Below are positions 3,541-10,081 of a stretch of DNA of 64,000 nt, one piece after another. The translations under genes were made by a program, and so were the position numbers. This DNA comes from Thermoproteaceae archaeon. Lineage in GTDB: Archaea > Thermoproteota > Thermoprotei > Thermoproteales > Thermoproteaceae. The notes below the pieces were generated by a model. It did no database searches and was not told where the DNA came from. It saw only the letters and a program-made list of their open reading frames with translations. The first letter of the stretch is position 1, and each line of letters begins with the position of its first letter. The stretch covers positions 12,277 through 76,276 of the forward strand of contig JAJHRB010000001.1 of the NCBI GenBank assembly GCA_020833025.1, read 5' to 3'.

Positions 3541-4757
3541 ATGGCGAGCAGCGCCTCGGGGCGAGCAGAATAGTACTTGCCTACTCGGGAGGTCTGGACA
3601 CCACGGTAGCAATAAAGTGGCTAAGGGAGAAGTTCAATGCAGAGGTTTATACTGTCACTGTTGACGTCGGGCAGGAGGAGGACTTTGCAGAGATTGAGGA
3701 GAGGGCATACAAGGCAGGCGCAGTGCAGCACTTCTACATAGATGCAAAGAGAGAATTCGCCGAGGAATACATATTTCGCTCTATTTTAATGAATGGAATG
3801 TATGAAGGGCTATACCCACTGGGGACCGCTCTGTCTAGGCCCCTAATAGCTAAGAGGGTTGTCGAGATAGCCAGAAGGGTCGGAGCAGACGCAGTGGCGC
3901 ACGGGTGCACCAGCAAGGGGAACGACCAGGTCAGGTTCGAGCTGACAATTAAGGCGCTCGCGCCTGACCTGAAAATCATAGCGCCGGCGAGAGTGTGGGG
4001 CATGACGCGCGCTGAGGAGCTTGAGTACGCCAAGCGTCACGGACTGCCTGTGAGCGCCGAGCACAGGAAATTCAGCATTGACGACAATCTTTGGTCGAGG
4101 TCAGTAGAGGGGGGCCCGCTGGACGACCCGGCCGCGGAGCCCTCGGAAGAGGTCTTCAAGTGGACGGTCGCGCCAGAGAAGGCGCCAGACAAACCGACGT
4201 ATCTGACGCTAGAATTTAGAGACGGGCTCCCAATTGCGATAAACGGCGAGAGAATGGACCCGCTCGCACTGGTGACCGCGCTTAACGGCATCGGCGGTGC
4301 AAACGGTATCGGCAGGATAGACCACATGGAGAGCAGGGTAGTGGGGCTTAAGAGCCGGGAGGTATACGAGGCGCCAGCAGCCGTGATACTGTACCACGCG
4401 CACAGAGACCTCGAGAAGCTCGTGCTCACGCCGCGCGAGCTGAGATTTAAGCACGGGATTCTTGACACCACGTGGTCGGACCTAGTGTATCAGGGCCTGT
4501 GGGTCGAGCCGCTGCGCGTGGCGCTTGAGAGGGCAGCAGAGGAGATGGAGCGGTGGGTGACCGGCACGGTGAGAGTAAAGCTCTACAAGGGCGCCCTCTG
4601 GATAGTGGGGAGGGAGTCGCCGTATAGTAGCTACAGCAGAGAGCTCGCCGACTACAATAGAGGGTGGTATCCGAGCGACGAGGAGGCCAGGGGATTCATT
4701 AAAATGTGGGGCCTCCACTCGCTGATCGCCATCAGGAGGCGCCGGCTGGCCGTCTAG
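3541..4757 (+). CDS. argG: Argininosuccinate synthase; start ATG out of frame, -1 shift needed near 3558-3561
   Basis: [13 protein letters not shown] from 3567, [22 protein letters not shown]. No ATG/GTG/TTG in frame before 3723; ATG 3541 reads [10 protein letters not shown]. Confidence 0.93.
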
Positions 4758-5011: not shown

Positions 5012-6229
5012 TCATGAGCGCGACCCCGAGCCCTCAAAGAAGTACAGCACAGCGGAAGGCCATGACTTTGCTACTGGTGACACGTCGTCCACGCACCCTC
5101 CCACTATCTTGAGCGCCGCGAGCGCCATTAGGCCAATTCTGTGATCGCCGTGTGAGGGCAACACGACGCCGCCTCTCCTGAGGGGCCCCCTCACGTGCAG
5201 TGTGCCGTCCTTGTACTCAGCATATGCGCCGAGCCTCCGCAGCACGTCGATGACAGAATTTATCCTGTCGCTCTCCTTAAACCGCAAGTGCTCCACCCCG
5301 CGGATTACTGAGAGGTCCTCTACCGTCGCGGCTGCCAGCGCCAGCGGCATGACTAAGTCAGTATTGTGCCTTAAATCTGCGTCAACTCCCCTGGCAAGCG
5401 CGCCGCTCACGCGCACGACGCCTCCTGCCTCGCTGATCCTGGCGCCCATTTTCTCCAGCGCCTCTAAGAGGGGCCTGTCGGTGCTGGCAACCGTGCACGC
5501 TATCTCCACGGTACCCCCAGTGGCGAGCGCCGCCACCGCGAGGAATGCTGCCAGGCTGAAGTCGCCAGGCACTTTAATGCTGCCGGGGCTTCTCAGCGTG
5601 CCGGAGACCTCCACGACGCTCCCCACGCTGACTCTCGCGCCAAAGGCCTTGAGAGCCTCGGCCGTCGCCTCGACAAAGCTCCAAGATCGCCTCTCGCCGA
5701 GGGGCTCCACGACTCCGCTTCCGCACAGCGCGGCGAGGTACATGAGGCCTGAGATGTATTGCGACGAGATGTCAGCCCTCACGCGCACGTGAAAGCTCTC
5801 GAGGCGCCTGCCCTCAACCACCACAAGGCCGGGCGCCCAGACGACTCTGGCAAGACCCCTCAAGGCGTCTACTAGCTCTCCGAGAGGTCTCTTTAGGAGA
5901 GTACCGCCGTATAGTATTGCAGTGATGCCTGGCACGCCTGTGTAAATGGCCGTGGACGCGCGCAGTACGAACCCGCTCTCCATGACGCTAAAGGCTCTGA
6001 GGCGCTCCGGCTCTCTCCTATCAATCATCACGCTGGCTCCCTCCAGTCTCACGCTCGCCAGCGGTTTTACTGCCCTCAACGCTGCGATCACGTCATCGCT
6101 CAGCTCGACCCCGTCAATTATAGTCTCCCCGTCAGCAAGCGCGGCGGCAAGGATAAAACGCTGGGAGTACGGCTTCGACGGCGGCGCCGGGAATCTACCC
6201 CCGAGAGTGCCTCGCTCAATGCAGAACAT
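5012..6229 (-). CDS. aroA: 3-phosphoshikimate 1-carboxyvinyltransferase (EPSP synthase)
   Basis: [24 protein letters not shown] and GDHRI motifs. Confidence 0.92.
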
Positions 6230-7247
6230 GAACTACGTAGGAGGTGGCCCTTGCAACATCCTCAGGCCTGACCCTCTCCAGCACCCACCTCCCCAGCCTG
6301 ACCACTAGCGGCATGTAGATGTACTCGCCGCGTCTCTTTTTGTCAAATTTTATCAGCGAGAGCGCGCCGGCAAGCTGCTCCCTCGACGCACGCGCCCGCG
6401 TTGGAAGCCCGAGCACCTCAAGCAGCGACCTCACGTCTGCAACAACGTCCTCGCGCAAGTAGCCCAGGTCGCGCGAGAGGTGGAGCTCTGCAACTATTCC
6501 GAGAGACACAGCCTCGCCGTGAAGGAGGCCCAGCACGCGCTCGAGAGCGTGTCCTACTGTGTGGCCTACATTCAGAACCTGCCTTATTCCCCTCTCCTCA
6601 AACTCGTCGATCTCAACCACTCTAGCCTTTATCTGAAGCGAGCGAAAAATTGCCGTCTCGAGCGCCCTCTCCTCCCGCCTCAGCAGCGCGTCCACGCCCT
6701 GCTTTATCCACGCGTAGAGCTCCTCGTCGAGCGCCACGCCATACTTCACCATTTCGGCAAACGCCGACCGGTACGCCCTATCGGGCAGCGTGTCTAGCCA
6801 TGACGTGTCGCAGAATATTAGCGAGGGCTGATAGAAGACGCCTATGAGGTTCTTGATGCTGCCGACATCGACCGCGCCCTTGCCTCCCAGTGCCGCGTCA
6901 ATCATAGCGAGAAGCGTCGTGGGAACGCTCACGAGTCTAAGTCCCCTCATGTAGGTCCCAGCCGCAAAGGTAGCGACGTCGAGCAGCGCGCCCCCGCCCA
7001 CGGCCACAAGGGCTGTTGACCTGTCGGCGCCTGCGCGCGCGAGAAATTCATATATCTTGAGCAGCGTGTCGAAACTCTTGACACCCTCGCCGCCCTTCAG
7101 TGCCAGCACGGGGACGCCGGGTATTGGCGGCCTGAGTCCCTCTTCGATTACCAGCACGGGTCTCTCTACCAGCTCTGAGTACGGGAGATCTCTCCCCACG
7201 ACGACCTCGGTCATCCCGCGGCTATGTCTGTAAGCGAACCGCTTCAT
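6216..7247 (-). CDS. aroB: 3-dehydroquinate synthase
   Basis: [43 protein letters not shown]. Confidence 0.95.
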
Positions 7248-8188
7248 CGCAGTCTCACGAGCTCCTCGGCCCTCGCCGCCACGCTCTCTGGCGTGAGGCC
7301 GAAGTGGTGGTAAAGATCGGCAGGGCTCTTTGCGCTCCTGCCATAGGACTTGAGGCCCATGATGGCGATTTTCGTCGGCCTTGTCTGGGACAGATACTCG
7401 GCGACGGCGGAGCCGAAGCCGCCGTGAACCATGTGCTCCTCGACCGTGACAATAGCGCCGGCTTTGGTCGCGTATTTCTCCACCGTGGAGTAGTCGAGGG
7501 GCTTAACAGTGGGGAAGTGCACTACGGCGGCCGATATTCCCCGGTCTTTTAGCAGCTGTGCTGCGTCAATGGCGCACGGCAGCATGATGCCAGTTGTAAA
7601 TATCGCAACATCGCTCCCCTCTCTGATAACATACGCCCTGCCCACCTCGAACTTGTCGTAGAGTGAACAGGTAACCGGGACGTGAAAATCCCTCCCGACC
7701 CTTATGTAGGCAGGCCCCCTTATTGCTGCCGATGCCATGACCGCCCTGTATACCTCGCACGAGTCCGCCGGGACTATTATGGTGAAATTAGGGAGAACTC
7801 TAAAGAGTGCGACGTCCTCCAGCGCTTGGTGTGACGGGCCGTCGTACGCGTCAGAAAATCCTGCGTGAGTCCCAACGAGCCTGACGGGAAGCGCGAGCCT
7901 GTCAACGGCGTTTCTGGCCTGCTCCCAGCCCCTTGCTAGGAACGCCGCGAACGTCACGGCGTACGGCATAAAGCCGGCCAGCGCTAAGCCGGCGGCGATC
8001 CCGACCAGCGCCTGCTCCGCAATGCCAACGTTGAAGTATCTCTCCGGGTGTCTCTCAGCGAAGAGCCTGGCCCTTGTGGGCTCCCCCGTATCTGCGACGA
8101 GCACGACAACATCCCCCCTTAAATCTCCGAGATCCGCCAGCGCGCGCCCCAGCGCCTCCCGGGGCGTTAGCTCTTCTAGCCCCGACAT
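7244..8188 (-). CDS. Transketolase, C-terminal subunit
   Basis: [34 protein letters not shown]. Confidence 0.93.
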
Positions 8189-9008
8189 GCTAGAGACTGT
8201 GCGTACTGCAGGGCCTCGTCTCTCGATAGTCTCTGCCGGGGAGTTCCCTCGATGCCCGGCACTCCCCTCCCCCTCGCAGTTCTGGCAATAATCACTGCGG
8301 GTCTTGTGCTGCTCTCGGCCCTTTCAAGCGCCGAGACTATCTGCTCGTGGTCGTGCCCGTCGGTCTCGAGTACTTCAAAGCCGAGCGCTCTGAGCCTGCC
8401 CGGCAGGTCCCCCTTGCGCAGTACCTCCTCAACGCGCCCGTCGAGCTGTATGCCGTTGTAGTCCACTATCGCGAGGAGATTAGTCAAGTTGTAGTGTGCC
8501 GCCGCGGCGAAGGACTCCCAGCTTAGCCCCTCGTCGAGCTCTCCGTCGCCAGTTATTAAGTACACGCGACCTCTGTTGCCCCTCAGCTTGAGGCCCAGGG
8601 AGAGGCCGACCGCCATGCTTATTCCCAGAGCCAGCGAACCTGAGTTGGGCACGTCGACAAACGGCGTGTCTGCCTCGGGGTGGTTCTGGAGGCGGCTGCC
8701 CAAGCTACCGGACTCCCTCAGCTCGTCGAGCGCTAGATAGCCCATTGCCGCGGCGAGCGCGTAAATCGCGTGCACCGCGTGACCCTTAGACAGCACTAGG
8801 TAATTCCTGTTGCCCACGCCATTTGCTAGATTGAACTTCACTCTGCCAGTGCCGTAGAGCGCTACCAGTATGTCGAGCACCGAGAGAGACGACCCGAGGT
8901 GCATCCCGGGGTCGTAGCTCGCCATTAGGAGCAGGTATAGTCTCGCCCTGCACGCCAGCTCTCTCAGCTGCTGAACCCCGACCTCTCTAGTGCTGAGTAC
9001 CCCTGCAT
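8176..9008 (-). CDS. Transketolase, N-terminal (TPP-binding) subunit; start ATG out of frame, -1 shift needed near 8979-8976
   Basis: HLGSSLS, LSKGHA, GDGELDEG. The frame stays open upstream of ATG 8925 through the first helix (QQLRELACRARLYLLLMA) with no canonical start; ATG 9008 reads MQGYSALERSGFSS*. Confidence 0.9.
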
Positions 9009-9027: not shown

Positions 9028-9035
9028 TATTTAAG
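9028..9035 (-). promoter_or_regulatory. TATA box of the tkt-tkt-aroB-aroA operon
   Basis: CTTAAATA on the minus strand, about 23 nt upstream of ATG 9008. Confidence 0.6.
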
Positions 9036-9100: not shown

Positions 9101-10081
9101 GTGGAGCGCTTGTTGAGAAACGTCGTGGAGGTAGTGACGCCCGAGGAGTTCTCCAGGCTGGGAGGCGGCGTGGCGTACCTCGGCTTCGAGCCGACCTGGC
9201 CAATACACGTTGGGTGGCTCGTGTGGGCTTTCAAGCTCGCAGAGCTCAAGGAAGCCGGCTTCGACGTGGTGCTGCTCGTCGCGACGTGGCATGCGTGGAT
9301 AAATGACAAGGGGTCCGTGGAGGAGCTGAGGGAGCACGGCCGTAAAATAAAGTCATTTATCGAGAAAATTAGCAATTTCAAATATGTCAATAGCGACGAC
9401 ATTGTCAGCGACCCGAAGTACTGGGAGCTGGTGGTCAGGGTGGCGAAGGTGACCTCTCTGGCGAGAGTGAGGCGCGCGATACCAATAATGGGCAGGCAGG
9501 CCGAGGAGGTCATGCTCGACTTCTCGAAACTGCTGTACCCGGTCATGCAGGTCGCCGACATGCTCTACCTTGGTGTCGACGTGGCGGTAGGGGGGCTCGA
9601 CCAGCGTCGCGCTCACATGCTGGCAAGGGATGCGGCGGAGAGACTCGGCCTCAAGAAGCCGGTAGCCCTTCATGTGCCCGTGATCACCTCGCTCTCTGGC
9701 GTTGGGAGAATGGAGGGCATTCACGGAGAGCTTGACGAGATGTACGCAATGTACAAAATGAGCAAGTCGAGGCCGAGTAGCGCAATATTCGTCACGGACT
9801 CCGATGAGGAGATTCGCAAGAAGGTCTGGCTCGCGTACTGCCCGCCGAGGGAGACAAGGTTCAACCCTGTGTTTGAGATCGCAGCATACCTCCTCATCCC
9901 ATACGCCGGGCCTCTCGAGGCAGGCGGGCGCCGCTACGAGGACCCGCGCGCGCTTGAGGGAGACTACAGGAGCGGTGCCATCGATCCCAGGACTCTTAAG
10001 GAGGCCGTGGCGTCCGGCCTCATATCTTTATTCTCCAAGCTTAGGAGCTGCGCCGTTGGCAAGCCCGGCACAGCGGCATGA
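9101..10081 (+). CDS. tyrS: Tyrosine--tRNA ligase
   Basis: YLGFEPT, HVGW (HIGH-like), YPVMQVAD, GGLDQ, KMSKS. Confidence 0.93.
   Translation: MERLLRNVVEVVTPEEFSRLGGGVAYLGFEPTWPIHVGWLVWAFKLAELKEAGFDVVLLVATWHAWINDKGSVEELREHGRKIKSFIEKISNFKYVNSDDIVSDPKYWELVVRVAKVTSLARVRRAIPIMGRQAEEVMLDFSKLLYPVMQVADMLYLGVDVAVGGLDQRRAHMLARDAAERLGLKKPVALHVPVITSLSGVGRMEGIHGELDEMYAMYKMSKSRPSSAIFVTDSDEEIRKKVWLAYCPPRETRFNPVFEIAAYLLIPYAGPLEAGGRRYEDPRALEGDYRSGAIDPRTLKEAVASGLISLFSKLRSCAVGKPGTAA

Follow-up and report, generated by a model that had tools for sequence, protein, structure and literature searches.

A predicted multi-input frameshift leader of the tkt-aro operon in Thermoproteaceae, a likely member of a genome-wide set of amino-acid-sensing leaders

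The 64,000-nucleotide stretch of Thermoproteaceae DNA analysed here (the window; contig JAJHRB010000001.1 of assembly GCA_020833025.1) carries on its minus strand the operon tktN-tktC-aroB-aroA, encoding a split transketolase and two shikimate-pathway enzymes. Its first gene overlaps, in another frame, a 14-codon leader open reading frame (ORF), in which the motif G_GGG twice precedes a codon for an aromatic amino acid. We propose that a hungry-codon -1 slip of the glycyl-tRNA in the P site gates translation of this operon, and that the leader is one of a genome-wide set in which G_GGG is joined to the codon for the product of the pathway; judging from sequence comparison, this is probably the case. 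That the leader serves as an aromatic amino-acid sensor of some kind is very probable, and frameshifting is the likely mechanism. The leader appears to have two inputs (Tyr and Phe) here and three (Tyr, Trp and Phe) in most relatives.

To our knowledge, the way in which Crenarchaeota sense amino-acid supply is largely unknown, and bacterial attenuators and T-boxes are lacking in them. Such devices would also find no place in most of their mRNAs, which begin without a 5' leader.

Results

The leader and the missing start of tktN

From ATG 9008-9006 the minus strand reads ATG CAG GGG TAC TCA GCA CTA GAG AGG TCG GGG TTC AGC AGC TGA, with the frame-0 stop two codons past the Phe codon. The first T of a TTAAATA box (9034-9028) lies 26 nt before the A of this ATG, and nothing resembling a ribosome-binding site was found between the box and the ATG. 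Such spacing implies a leaderless mRNA; most Pyrobaculum mRNAs are reportedly of this kind. The leader and its short distance from a TATA box, both claimed in the original prediction (an earlier reading of these letters alone), were thus seen again on direct reading.

The frame of tktN is -1 to that of the leader and is open from TAA 9033-9031, and between this stop and ATG 8925 it holds no ATG, GTG or TTG. From residue 19 on, its stop-to-stop translation aligns both with full-length transketolases and with the N component of the split-chain transketolase 6YAK (E = 3.8e-50). Val19, at which homology to solved transketolases begins, is encoded by GTT 8976-8974 and would be the first residue added in the -1 frame by a slip at the Phe unit. 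A start at ATG 8925 (residue 36) would cut off 17 residues of the conserved first helix. The earlier statement of a -1 transketolase-N frame that lacks a canonical start upstream of ATG 8925 is therefore confirmed, with ATG 8925 lying inside that helix. By both slip routes the predicted product has 277 aa, either MQG followed by VLSTREVGVQQL... (slip at Tyr) or MQGYSALERSG followed by VQQL... (slip at Phe).

As to the slip sites, the original prediction described a single one, GGGG 8979-8976 followed by the Phe codon TTC 8975-8973. This site is present as described, and the Tyr codon forms part of an identical unit (9003-8997) that had been overlooked. Together with the preceding codon bases the units read CAG_GGG_TAC at 9005-8997 and TCG_GGG_TTC at 8981-8973. 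In both, the P-site GGG is fully re-pairable one base back (9003-9000 and 8979-8976), and tRNA-Tyr or tRNA-Phe in the A site would be unable to re-pair on GTA or GTT, so that the slippery heptamer of canonical -1 programmed ribosomal frameshifting (PRF) is absent. No conserved downstream RNA structure was found (RNAalifold consensus of -1.06 kcal/mol for 23 distinct leaders), and the folding of the window leader gave z = +0.56 against shuffles; the lack of such structure is as expected of one-tRNA hungry-codon slippage. The canonical combination of heptamer and downstream structure was accordingly rejected, neither being present at the tkt leader. A gene for tRNA-Gly(CCC) is present in the genome according to ARAGORN in intron mode (without that mode, only 11 tRNAs were reported and this one was missed), and GGG accounts for 27% of the Gly codons.

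The gene tktN is single-copy in the genome, intact over 275 codons, and heads an intact operon. As expected of a split transketolase, it encodes the Transketolase_N domain alone, the pyrimidine-binding and C-terminal domains being encoded by the next gene. Pfam assignments and reading of the junctions confirmed the predicted gene order tktN-tktC-aroB-aroA with overlapping downstream genes: the overlap is 13 nt for tktN/tktC (tktC starting at ATG 8188), ATGA for tktC/aroB and 14 nt for aroB/aroA.

It was also seen that tktC opens with ATG TCG GGG CTA, so that TCG_GGG recurs in the true tktC frame at the 13-nt overlap with the tktN stop (8176-8188, minus strand); this is probably a coincidence, and relatives show no conservation of the tktN C-terminus.

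Conservation of the tkt leader in related genomes

Orthologous tkt loci were compared in 17 other Pyrobaculum species, eight Thermoproteus, two members of a third Thermoproteaceae genus and outgroups; the counts below refer to the 25 evaluable Pyrobaculum and Thermoproteus genomes, and 10 of the relatives have single-contig genomes. The genus names were taken from those attached to homologous proteins, which also assign the present organism to Pyrobaculum. In all 25, an ATG located 26-32 nt after a TTAAATA-like box opens an ORF of 12-20 codons that is +1 to the enzyme frame. The ortholog comparison, named as a check in the original prediction, thus found the frame relation kept throughout, and this conservation rules out a sequencing error at the G4 run. 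Nor is the layout a product of chance, since it recurs in all 25 evaluable genomes of the family and in at least 12 other operons of the present genome.

Every one of the 64 leader units consists of NNG_GGG followed by a codon for Tyr (25 units), Trp (22) or Phe (17), and the Gly codon in them is always GGG (64/64). The Tyr unit is found in all 25 leaders and is always joined by a Trp unit, a Phe unit or both, the Phe unit being present in 17 of the 25. Only two aromatic codons lack G_GGG, both past the last unit; the sole G_GGG without an aromatic codon after it forms the first half of a G7 run, and that run leads into TTT. Ahead of the first unit, insertions and deletions in the leaders come in multiples of three. 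In 25/25 genomes no stop interrupts the enzyme (-1) frame from the first unit onwards, and in one of them an enzyme-frame stop abuts the first slip codon.

Tyr, Trp and Phe are invariant in the leader frame, and the overlapping residue of the enzyme frame has six, three and three identities at the three unit types, respectively; at the Tyr unit it may be L, R, F, S, Y or H. The possibility that GGGGT is kept merely as an enzyme-frame Gly-Val was considered and rejected, as the residue after Val varies, the leader aromatic does not, and outgroups with in-frame starts have no GV repeats. The order of units is Tyr-Trp-Phe in most Pyrobaculum, Tyr-Trp in three, and Tyr-Phe in the window and two others; Thermoproteus has Tyr-Trp in most cases and Tyr-Phe-Trp in one, and a metagenome lineage (L057) has the Tyr unit alone (ATG ... 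TCG GGG TAC ... TGA). The units thus appear to be gained, lost and reordered as modules.

No canonical enzyme-frame start precedes the conserved helix in the window, in two other Pyrobaculum species and in the metagenome lineage L057. The homologue P0025 of that lineage was tried as an ancestral, unshifted in-frame form and rejected, its called start being a GTG inside the TATA box on its contig. An ordinary in-frame ATG start of tktN was found in the third genus of the family and in one outgroup genus. In the third genus (loci L020 and L028) tktN directly follows an intron-containing tRNA gene and starts from an in-frame ATG (MYILSRIMWAV..), with no leader.

Matching leaders across the genome

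The whole draft genome (126 contigs) was scanned for short ORFs with an in-frame G_GGG_NNN whose ATG is preceded at 15-40 nt by an A/T box, the -1 frame being open for at least 120 codons with an upstream stop no more than 60 codons away. Two initial scans without the promoter criterion were unspecific (85 units for -1/GGGG against 84 for -1/CCCC); the A/T-box criterion was then added from the tkt leader, and the match of sensor codon to pathway was never a selection criterion. With the promoter criterion, 17 ORFs were retrieved for -1/G_GGG; other tetramers or the +1 frame yielded 0-13.

Of these 17 ORFs, 12 were named by NCBIfam as first enzymes of amino-acid pathways, and in 12/12 the codon after G_GGG encodes a product of the pathway (Table 1). 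The joint chance of these matches is about 3e-17 under genome amino-acid frequencies and 4e-9 under a generous binomial with p = 0.1 per case. The paralogous isopropylmalate, homocitrate and citramalate synthases have three different codons, each of them matching. Among 15 control ORFs (+1/GGGG and -1/CCCC), no comparable enrichment of matching pathways was found. The sensing of amino acids, as originally predicted for the tkt leader, thus gains support from the genome-wide agreement between the codon after G_GGG and the pathway product.

For the 11 enzymes besides tktN, the family-profile alignment sets in 2-15 residues past the slip site, apart from a weak CysK/M-like match that begins at 69. 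The first canonical start of the 12 enzymes lies from 4 nt upstream to 230 nt downstream of the leader ATG, and in 8/12 at least 53 nt downstream. Five of the 17 hits could not be placed as matched sensors: L032 has a weak glutamate-synthase-like match only, and L031, L040, L043 and L045 have no Pfam or NCBIfam family match and may be further members or false positives.

Leaders of other aromatic genes and of the sister family

The prephenate dehydratase gene pheA of the present genome has a leader with a Phe unit, a less obvious promoter and a TTG 41 nt downstream. In 5/5 relatives (L091-L095) the Phe unit G_GGG_TTY is kept behind a well-placed TATA box, in leaders beginning MEGF.., MQGF.. 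or MDCEGF.., and pheA homology starts at the slip-site Gly in all five. Trp units precede trpE in two Thermoproteus genomes in which it heads the transcript (MSSGW.. and MASGW-stop); in three Pyrobaculum genomes trpE, and in the sister family trpD, are internal genes of operons and hence uninformative. The leader of trpS suggests that the device is also present on a tRNA synthetase gene, beyond the biosynthetic ones. No leader of the G_GGG kind was found on the chorismate synthase gene of the present genome. Taken together, the leaders suggest that the common aromatic pathway would read all three aromatic amino acids and each branch its own product.

In the sister family, where transketolase is fused (L050-L056), short +1 ORFs in leaderless position overlap the 5' end of the gene; they encode MEFGTHVEYLEW, MEYQDFQW, MEYREFQW or MQLEYL, each followed by a stop, and their aromatic codons stand mostly after G_GAA, not G_GGG. 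One argG leader of that family (L079) reads ATG GAT AAC CTG GGA CGA.. (G_GGA_CGA), and its enzyme has no canonical start; another (L080) reads ATG GAT AAT CTG GAA CGA CGT TGA (G_GAA_CGA), with a TTG overlapping the leader stop. In genus g7, argG has a plain in-frame ATG. The sister-family leaders suggest that the aromatic leader arose before the G_GGG unit did and that slip codons of the G_GNN type recur. For the sister-family tkt, the mechanism may be a weaker slip, termination-reinitiation, or both.

Table 1. Features of the window and related leaders elsewhere in the same genome (window coordinates for the first eight rows, contig coordinates for the others)
Feature	Position	Strand	Sensor codon or leader	Basis and remarks
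TATA box TTAAATA, promoter of the tkt-aro operon	9028..9034	-		Direct reading; TTAAATA/TTTAAA-type box with the same spacing at 25 orthologous loci
Leader ORF, frame 0	8964..9008	-	MQGYSALERSGFSS, then stop TGA 8966-8964	Read directly; orthologous leaders in 25 genomes
Sensor unit 1, G_GGG_TAC	8997..9003	-	Tyr codon 8999-8997 (A site)	Direct reading; G 9003, slip codon GGG 9002-9000
Sensor unit 2, G_GGG_TTC	8973..8979	-	Phe codon 8975-8973 (A site)	Direct reading; G 8979, slip codon GGG 8978-8976
tktN, N-terminal subunit of split transketolase	8176..9003	-	Tyr TAC and Phe TTC	Read at -1 from both slip sites, stop TAG 8178-8176; Pfam Transketolase_N (PF00456) 3.1e-34; PDB 6YAK 3.8e-50; found in the scan
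tktC, C-terminal transketolase subunit	7244..8188	-		Pfam Transket_pyr (PF02779) and Transketolase_C (PF02780)
aroB, 3-dehydroquinate synthase	6216..7247	-		Pfam DHQ_synthase and DHQS_C
aroA, EPSP synthase, last gene of the operon	5012..6229	-		Pfam EPSP_synthase 4.7e-56
Acetolactate synthase (ilvB)			Leu CTC	Scan
Isopropylmalate synthase (leuA)			Leu CTC	Scan
Homocitrate synthase			Lys AAA	Scan
Citramalate synthase			Ile ATC	Scan
Threonine synthase (thrC)			Thr ACG	Scan
Argininosuccinate synthase (argG)			Arg CGA	Scan
Carbamoyl-phosphate synthase small subunit (carA)			Arg CGA	Scan
CysK/M-like enzyme			Cys TGT	Scan
trpD, trpE, trpB2			Trp TGG	Scan
pheA, prephenate dehydratase (L075)	C19:32834-33733	+	ATG CCG GGG TTT (Phe unit)	
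trpS, tryptophanyl-tRNA synthetase (L073)	C31:775-1935	-	MGWALPGRD..; ATG_GGG_TGG in the +1 frame	Known from this genome
L031	C24:13558-14394	+	Phe	Leader design
L043	C8:6447-6899	+	Ile	Leader design
L045	C90:2977-3819	-	Ile	Leader design
L040	C61:8065-8727	-	Pro	Leader design

Neighbouring genes

The tkt-aro operon is divided by a promoter region of about 90 nt from the divergent tyrosyl-tRNA synthetase gene tyrS (9101-10081, plus strand; NCBIfam 4.5e-112), which has its own TTATAA box and starts at GTG 9101; no frameshift leader was found on it. On the other side, argG (3541-4757, plus strand) converges on aroA and has its own leader with TCG_GGG_CGA (Arg); CGA makes up 2% of the Arg codons in this genome.

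Start sites in public records

The public records P0002, P0004, P0005, P0014, P0015 and P0025 were compared for their start sites. The transketolase-N starts proved inconsistent, being placed either at the GTG inside GGGGTGG (267-268 aa) or, where no GTG exists, at an internal ATG, at the cost of part of the first helix (246-249 aa); the GTG inside the TATA box from which P0025 is annotated gives 280 aa. If the proposed frameshift is real, these genes carry wrong 5' ends in public annotation, where the leading genes of some amino-acid operons resemble pseudogenes or are cut short.

Discussion

Proposed mechanism

Leaderless initiation, the slip, its dependence on aminoacyl-tRNA and the downstream coupling are steps that we infer as follows. 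The genes tktN-tktC-aroB-aroA, whose products supply erythrose-4-phosphate and two steps of the shikimate pathway, would be transcribed as a leaderless mRNA from ATG 9008. Ribosomes would initiate at this ATG in the 14-codon frame. As long as charged Tyr- and Phe-tRNA are plentiful, the A site would fill fast, frame 0 would be kept and translation would stop at TGA 8966-8964 with no enzyme made. A shortage of either charged tRNA would leave the ribosome paused, with its A site vacant and peptidyl-tRNA-Gly(CCC) paired to GGG; the Gly-tRNA could then re-pair one base back on G_GG, a perfect match, and the new A-site codon, Val (GTA or GTT), would lead into transketolase-N in the -1 frame. Termination-reinitiation at the overlapping stop/start junctions would pass ribosomes on to tktC, aroB and aroA. 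In other words, the leader would act as an OR gate for aromatic amino-acid shortage.

In the wider form that we find likely, the Thermoproteaceae, as well as the sister family in a modified form (G_GGA, G_GAA), would possess a genome-wide translational regulon, in which pathways are switched on by hungry-codon -1 frameshifting at leaderless 5' ends and of which the tkt-aro leader is a multi-input OR gate.

Weighing of the alternatives

Several observations weigh against this scheme. An in-frame GTG of the enzyme is present in 22/25 relatives, and initiation at it could supply some or all of the enzyme there; G_GGG_TGG, the Trp unit, creates such a GTG automatically. In the sister family the enzyme ATG overlaps the final TGG-stop of the leader, which suggests that an aromatic leader can coexist with ordinary initiation or reinitiation. 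The genes for DAHP synthase and tyrA of the present genome have no such leader. Finally, in-frame G_GGG is barely under-represented in long ORFs of the whole genome (1956 cases, observed/expected 0.90). As it is not avoided in ordinary ORFs, the motif alone cannot be very slippery, and extra context (5'-end position, a preceding UCG, CAG or GAG codon) or true starvation must presumably be needed.

The first two of these observations are also what would be expected if the short ORF were an aromatic-sensing stalling upstream ORF (uORF) and the enzyme were initiated separately, without any frameshift: at the GTG in GGGGTGG, which databases use as a start, at CTG, GTT or ATG 8925 in the window, or by reinitiation, for which the sister-family overlap of the ATG with the last Trp codon and stop is a classic arrangement. 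Leaderless cognate-codon short ORFs of mycobacteria are reported to control downstream genes with no frameshift (bioRxiv 10.1101/834739). We nevertheless regard this explanation as unlikely. It leaves unexplained why G_GGG stands before every sensor codon (64/64 tkt units and the other matching operons) and why the Tyr unit, which lies upstream of the GTG, is conserved; in the window, in two other species and in L057, the stretch ahead of the conserved helix offers no canonical codon at which to initiate; and 8/12 enzymes have no start codon within 53-230 nt of the leader ATG, yet show homology from the slip site. Besides, if ribosomes stalled on a leaderless uORF during starvation, reinitiation should become less frequent rather than more.

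A -1 frameshift could also be real but constitutive, that is, a recoding of fixed efficiency or a tolerated ancestral indel, blind to the levels of aromatic aminoacyl-tRNA. G_GGG is a perfect one-tRNA slip site regardless of the next codon, and incidental, unused frameshifting has been documented in E. coli pheL (PMC3082878). However, the codon after G_GGG is aromatic in 64/64 tkt units and matches the pathway in 12 operons (about 3e-17), three paralogous synthases carry matching Leu, Lys and Ile codons, and units have been duplicated and reshuffled under the same codon rule, all of which makes blindness to the next codon quite improbable. Still more doubtful is a reader other than the ribosome, such as an uncharged tRNA (with a T-box-like specifier), an RNA G-quadruplex or a DNA- or RNA-binding regulator. 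A short, repeated G-rich element adjoining a pathway-specific triplet might suit such a reader, and by eye GGGGU resembles a Shine-Dalgarno core; yet no conserved structure was found (the RNAalifold and shuffling values given above), the window leader has only two G4 runs, and such a reader gives no role to the strict phase, with GGG in frame with a promoter-positioned ATG, the enzyme exactly at -1 and indels in multiples of three. As for a one-base error of sequencing or assembly in the G run, or a decaying pseudogene, the genome is indeed a 126-contig draft and homopolymer runs are error-prone; but with the same frame relation in 25 independent genomes, the 10 single-contig ones included, and with tktN intact, single-copy and heading an intact operon, we give an artefact almost no credence. 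Transcriptional slippage on G4 was dismissed by reasoning, the run being too short and the codon specificity left unexplained. We therefore retain the hungry-codon slip as the probable reading.

If it is correct, ribosomal frameshifting is a general, programmable metabolite sensor, and hungry-codon slippage turns from an error into a regulatory principle. The element would be modular, G_GGG plus any codon, its input set by a single triplet, and the number of programmed -1 frameshifts in Archaea would rise from one to dozens per genome.

Comparison with known systems

The literature searches found no description of an amino-acid-sensing frameshift leader system, and the 2016 Atkins review and the GeneTack survey hold no mention of Pyrobaculum, Thermoproteus or transketolase; the tkt leader is apparently a multi-input member of an undescribed class of such leaders. 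Hungry-codon leftward (-1) frameshifting has been reported in E. coli (Gallant and Lindsley 1992, as summarised in PMC8211752 and PMC5009743), and its mechanics are alike. There it counts as an error of translation that starvation induces in test constructs, and not as a natural switch; here, unlike in E. coli, the motif heads biosynthetic operons, the hungry codon is that of the pathway product, and it is the shifted frame that encodes the enzyme.

According to a 2021 review, a single -1 PRF has been reported from Archaea, that of fucA1 of Saccharolobus solfataricus (PMC8211752). It too is a -1 shift that joins two ORFs into one enzyme, but it has a classic slippery heptamer in mid-gene and no amino-acid sensing, whereas the proposed shift would take place at codons 3-11 of a leaderless mRNA without a heptamer. 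In its proposed logic the tkt leader resembles the +1 frameshifts of prfB (release factor 2) and antizyme (PMC5009743): ORF0 stops a short way past the shift site, only shifted ribosomes make the full-length product, and the efficiency of the shift reports the supply of the A-site decoder, which provides negative feedback. Those systems differ in shifting by +1 at a stop codon and in their stimulators, a Shine-Dalgarno sequence in prfB and polyamine and a pseudoknot in antizyme; in the leaders described here, the shift would be -1 at a sense codon, and one device would be reused with different codons across operons.

The leaderless polycysteine short ORFs of mycobacteria (bioRxiv 10.1101/834739) are similar in that a tiny ORF with cognate codons senses an amino acid and controls downstream biosynthetic genes translationally; they are bacterial, have runs of Cys codons and, as described, involve no frameshift. 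Closest in purpose are the bacterial attenuators trpL, pheL and hisL (PMC3082878, PMC1262725), in which a leader ORF also contains codons for the product of its own operon and ribosome speed sets expression. The logic is alike as well, the common aromatic steps sensing several products, pheA sensing Phe and the trp genes Trp. In contrast to the attenuators, the tkt leader has no terminator or antiterminator hairpins, overlaps the structural gene in another frame with no canonical start for it ahead of the conserved helix, and uses single cognate codons rather than runs; its output would be a change of reading frame and not transcription read-through. If the proposed mechanism is true, leaders of this kind are an archaeal counterpart of bacterial attenuation.

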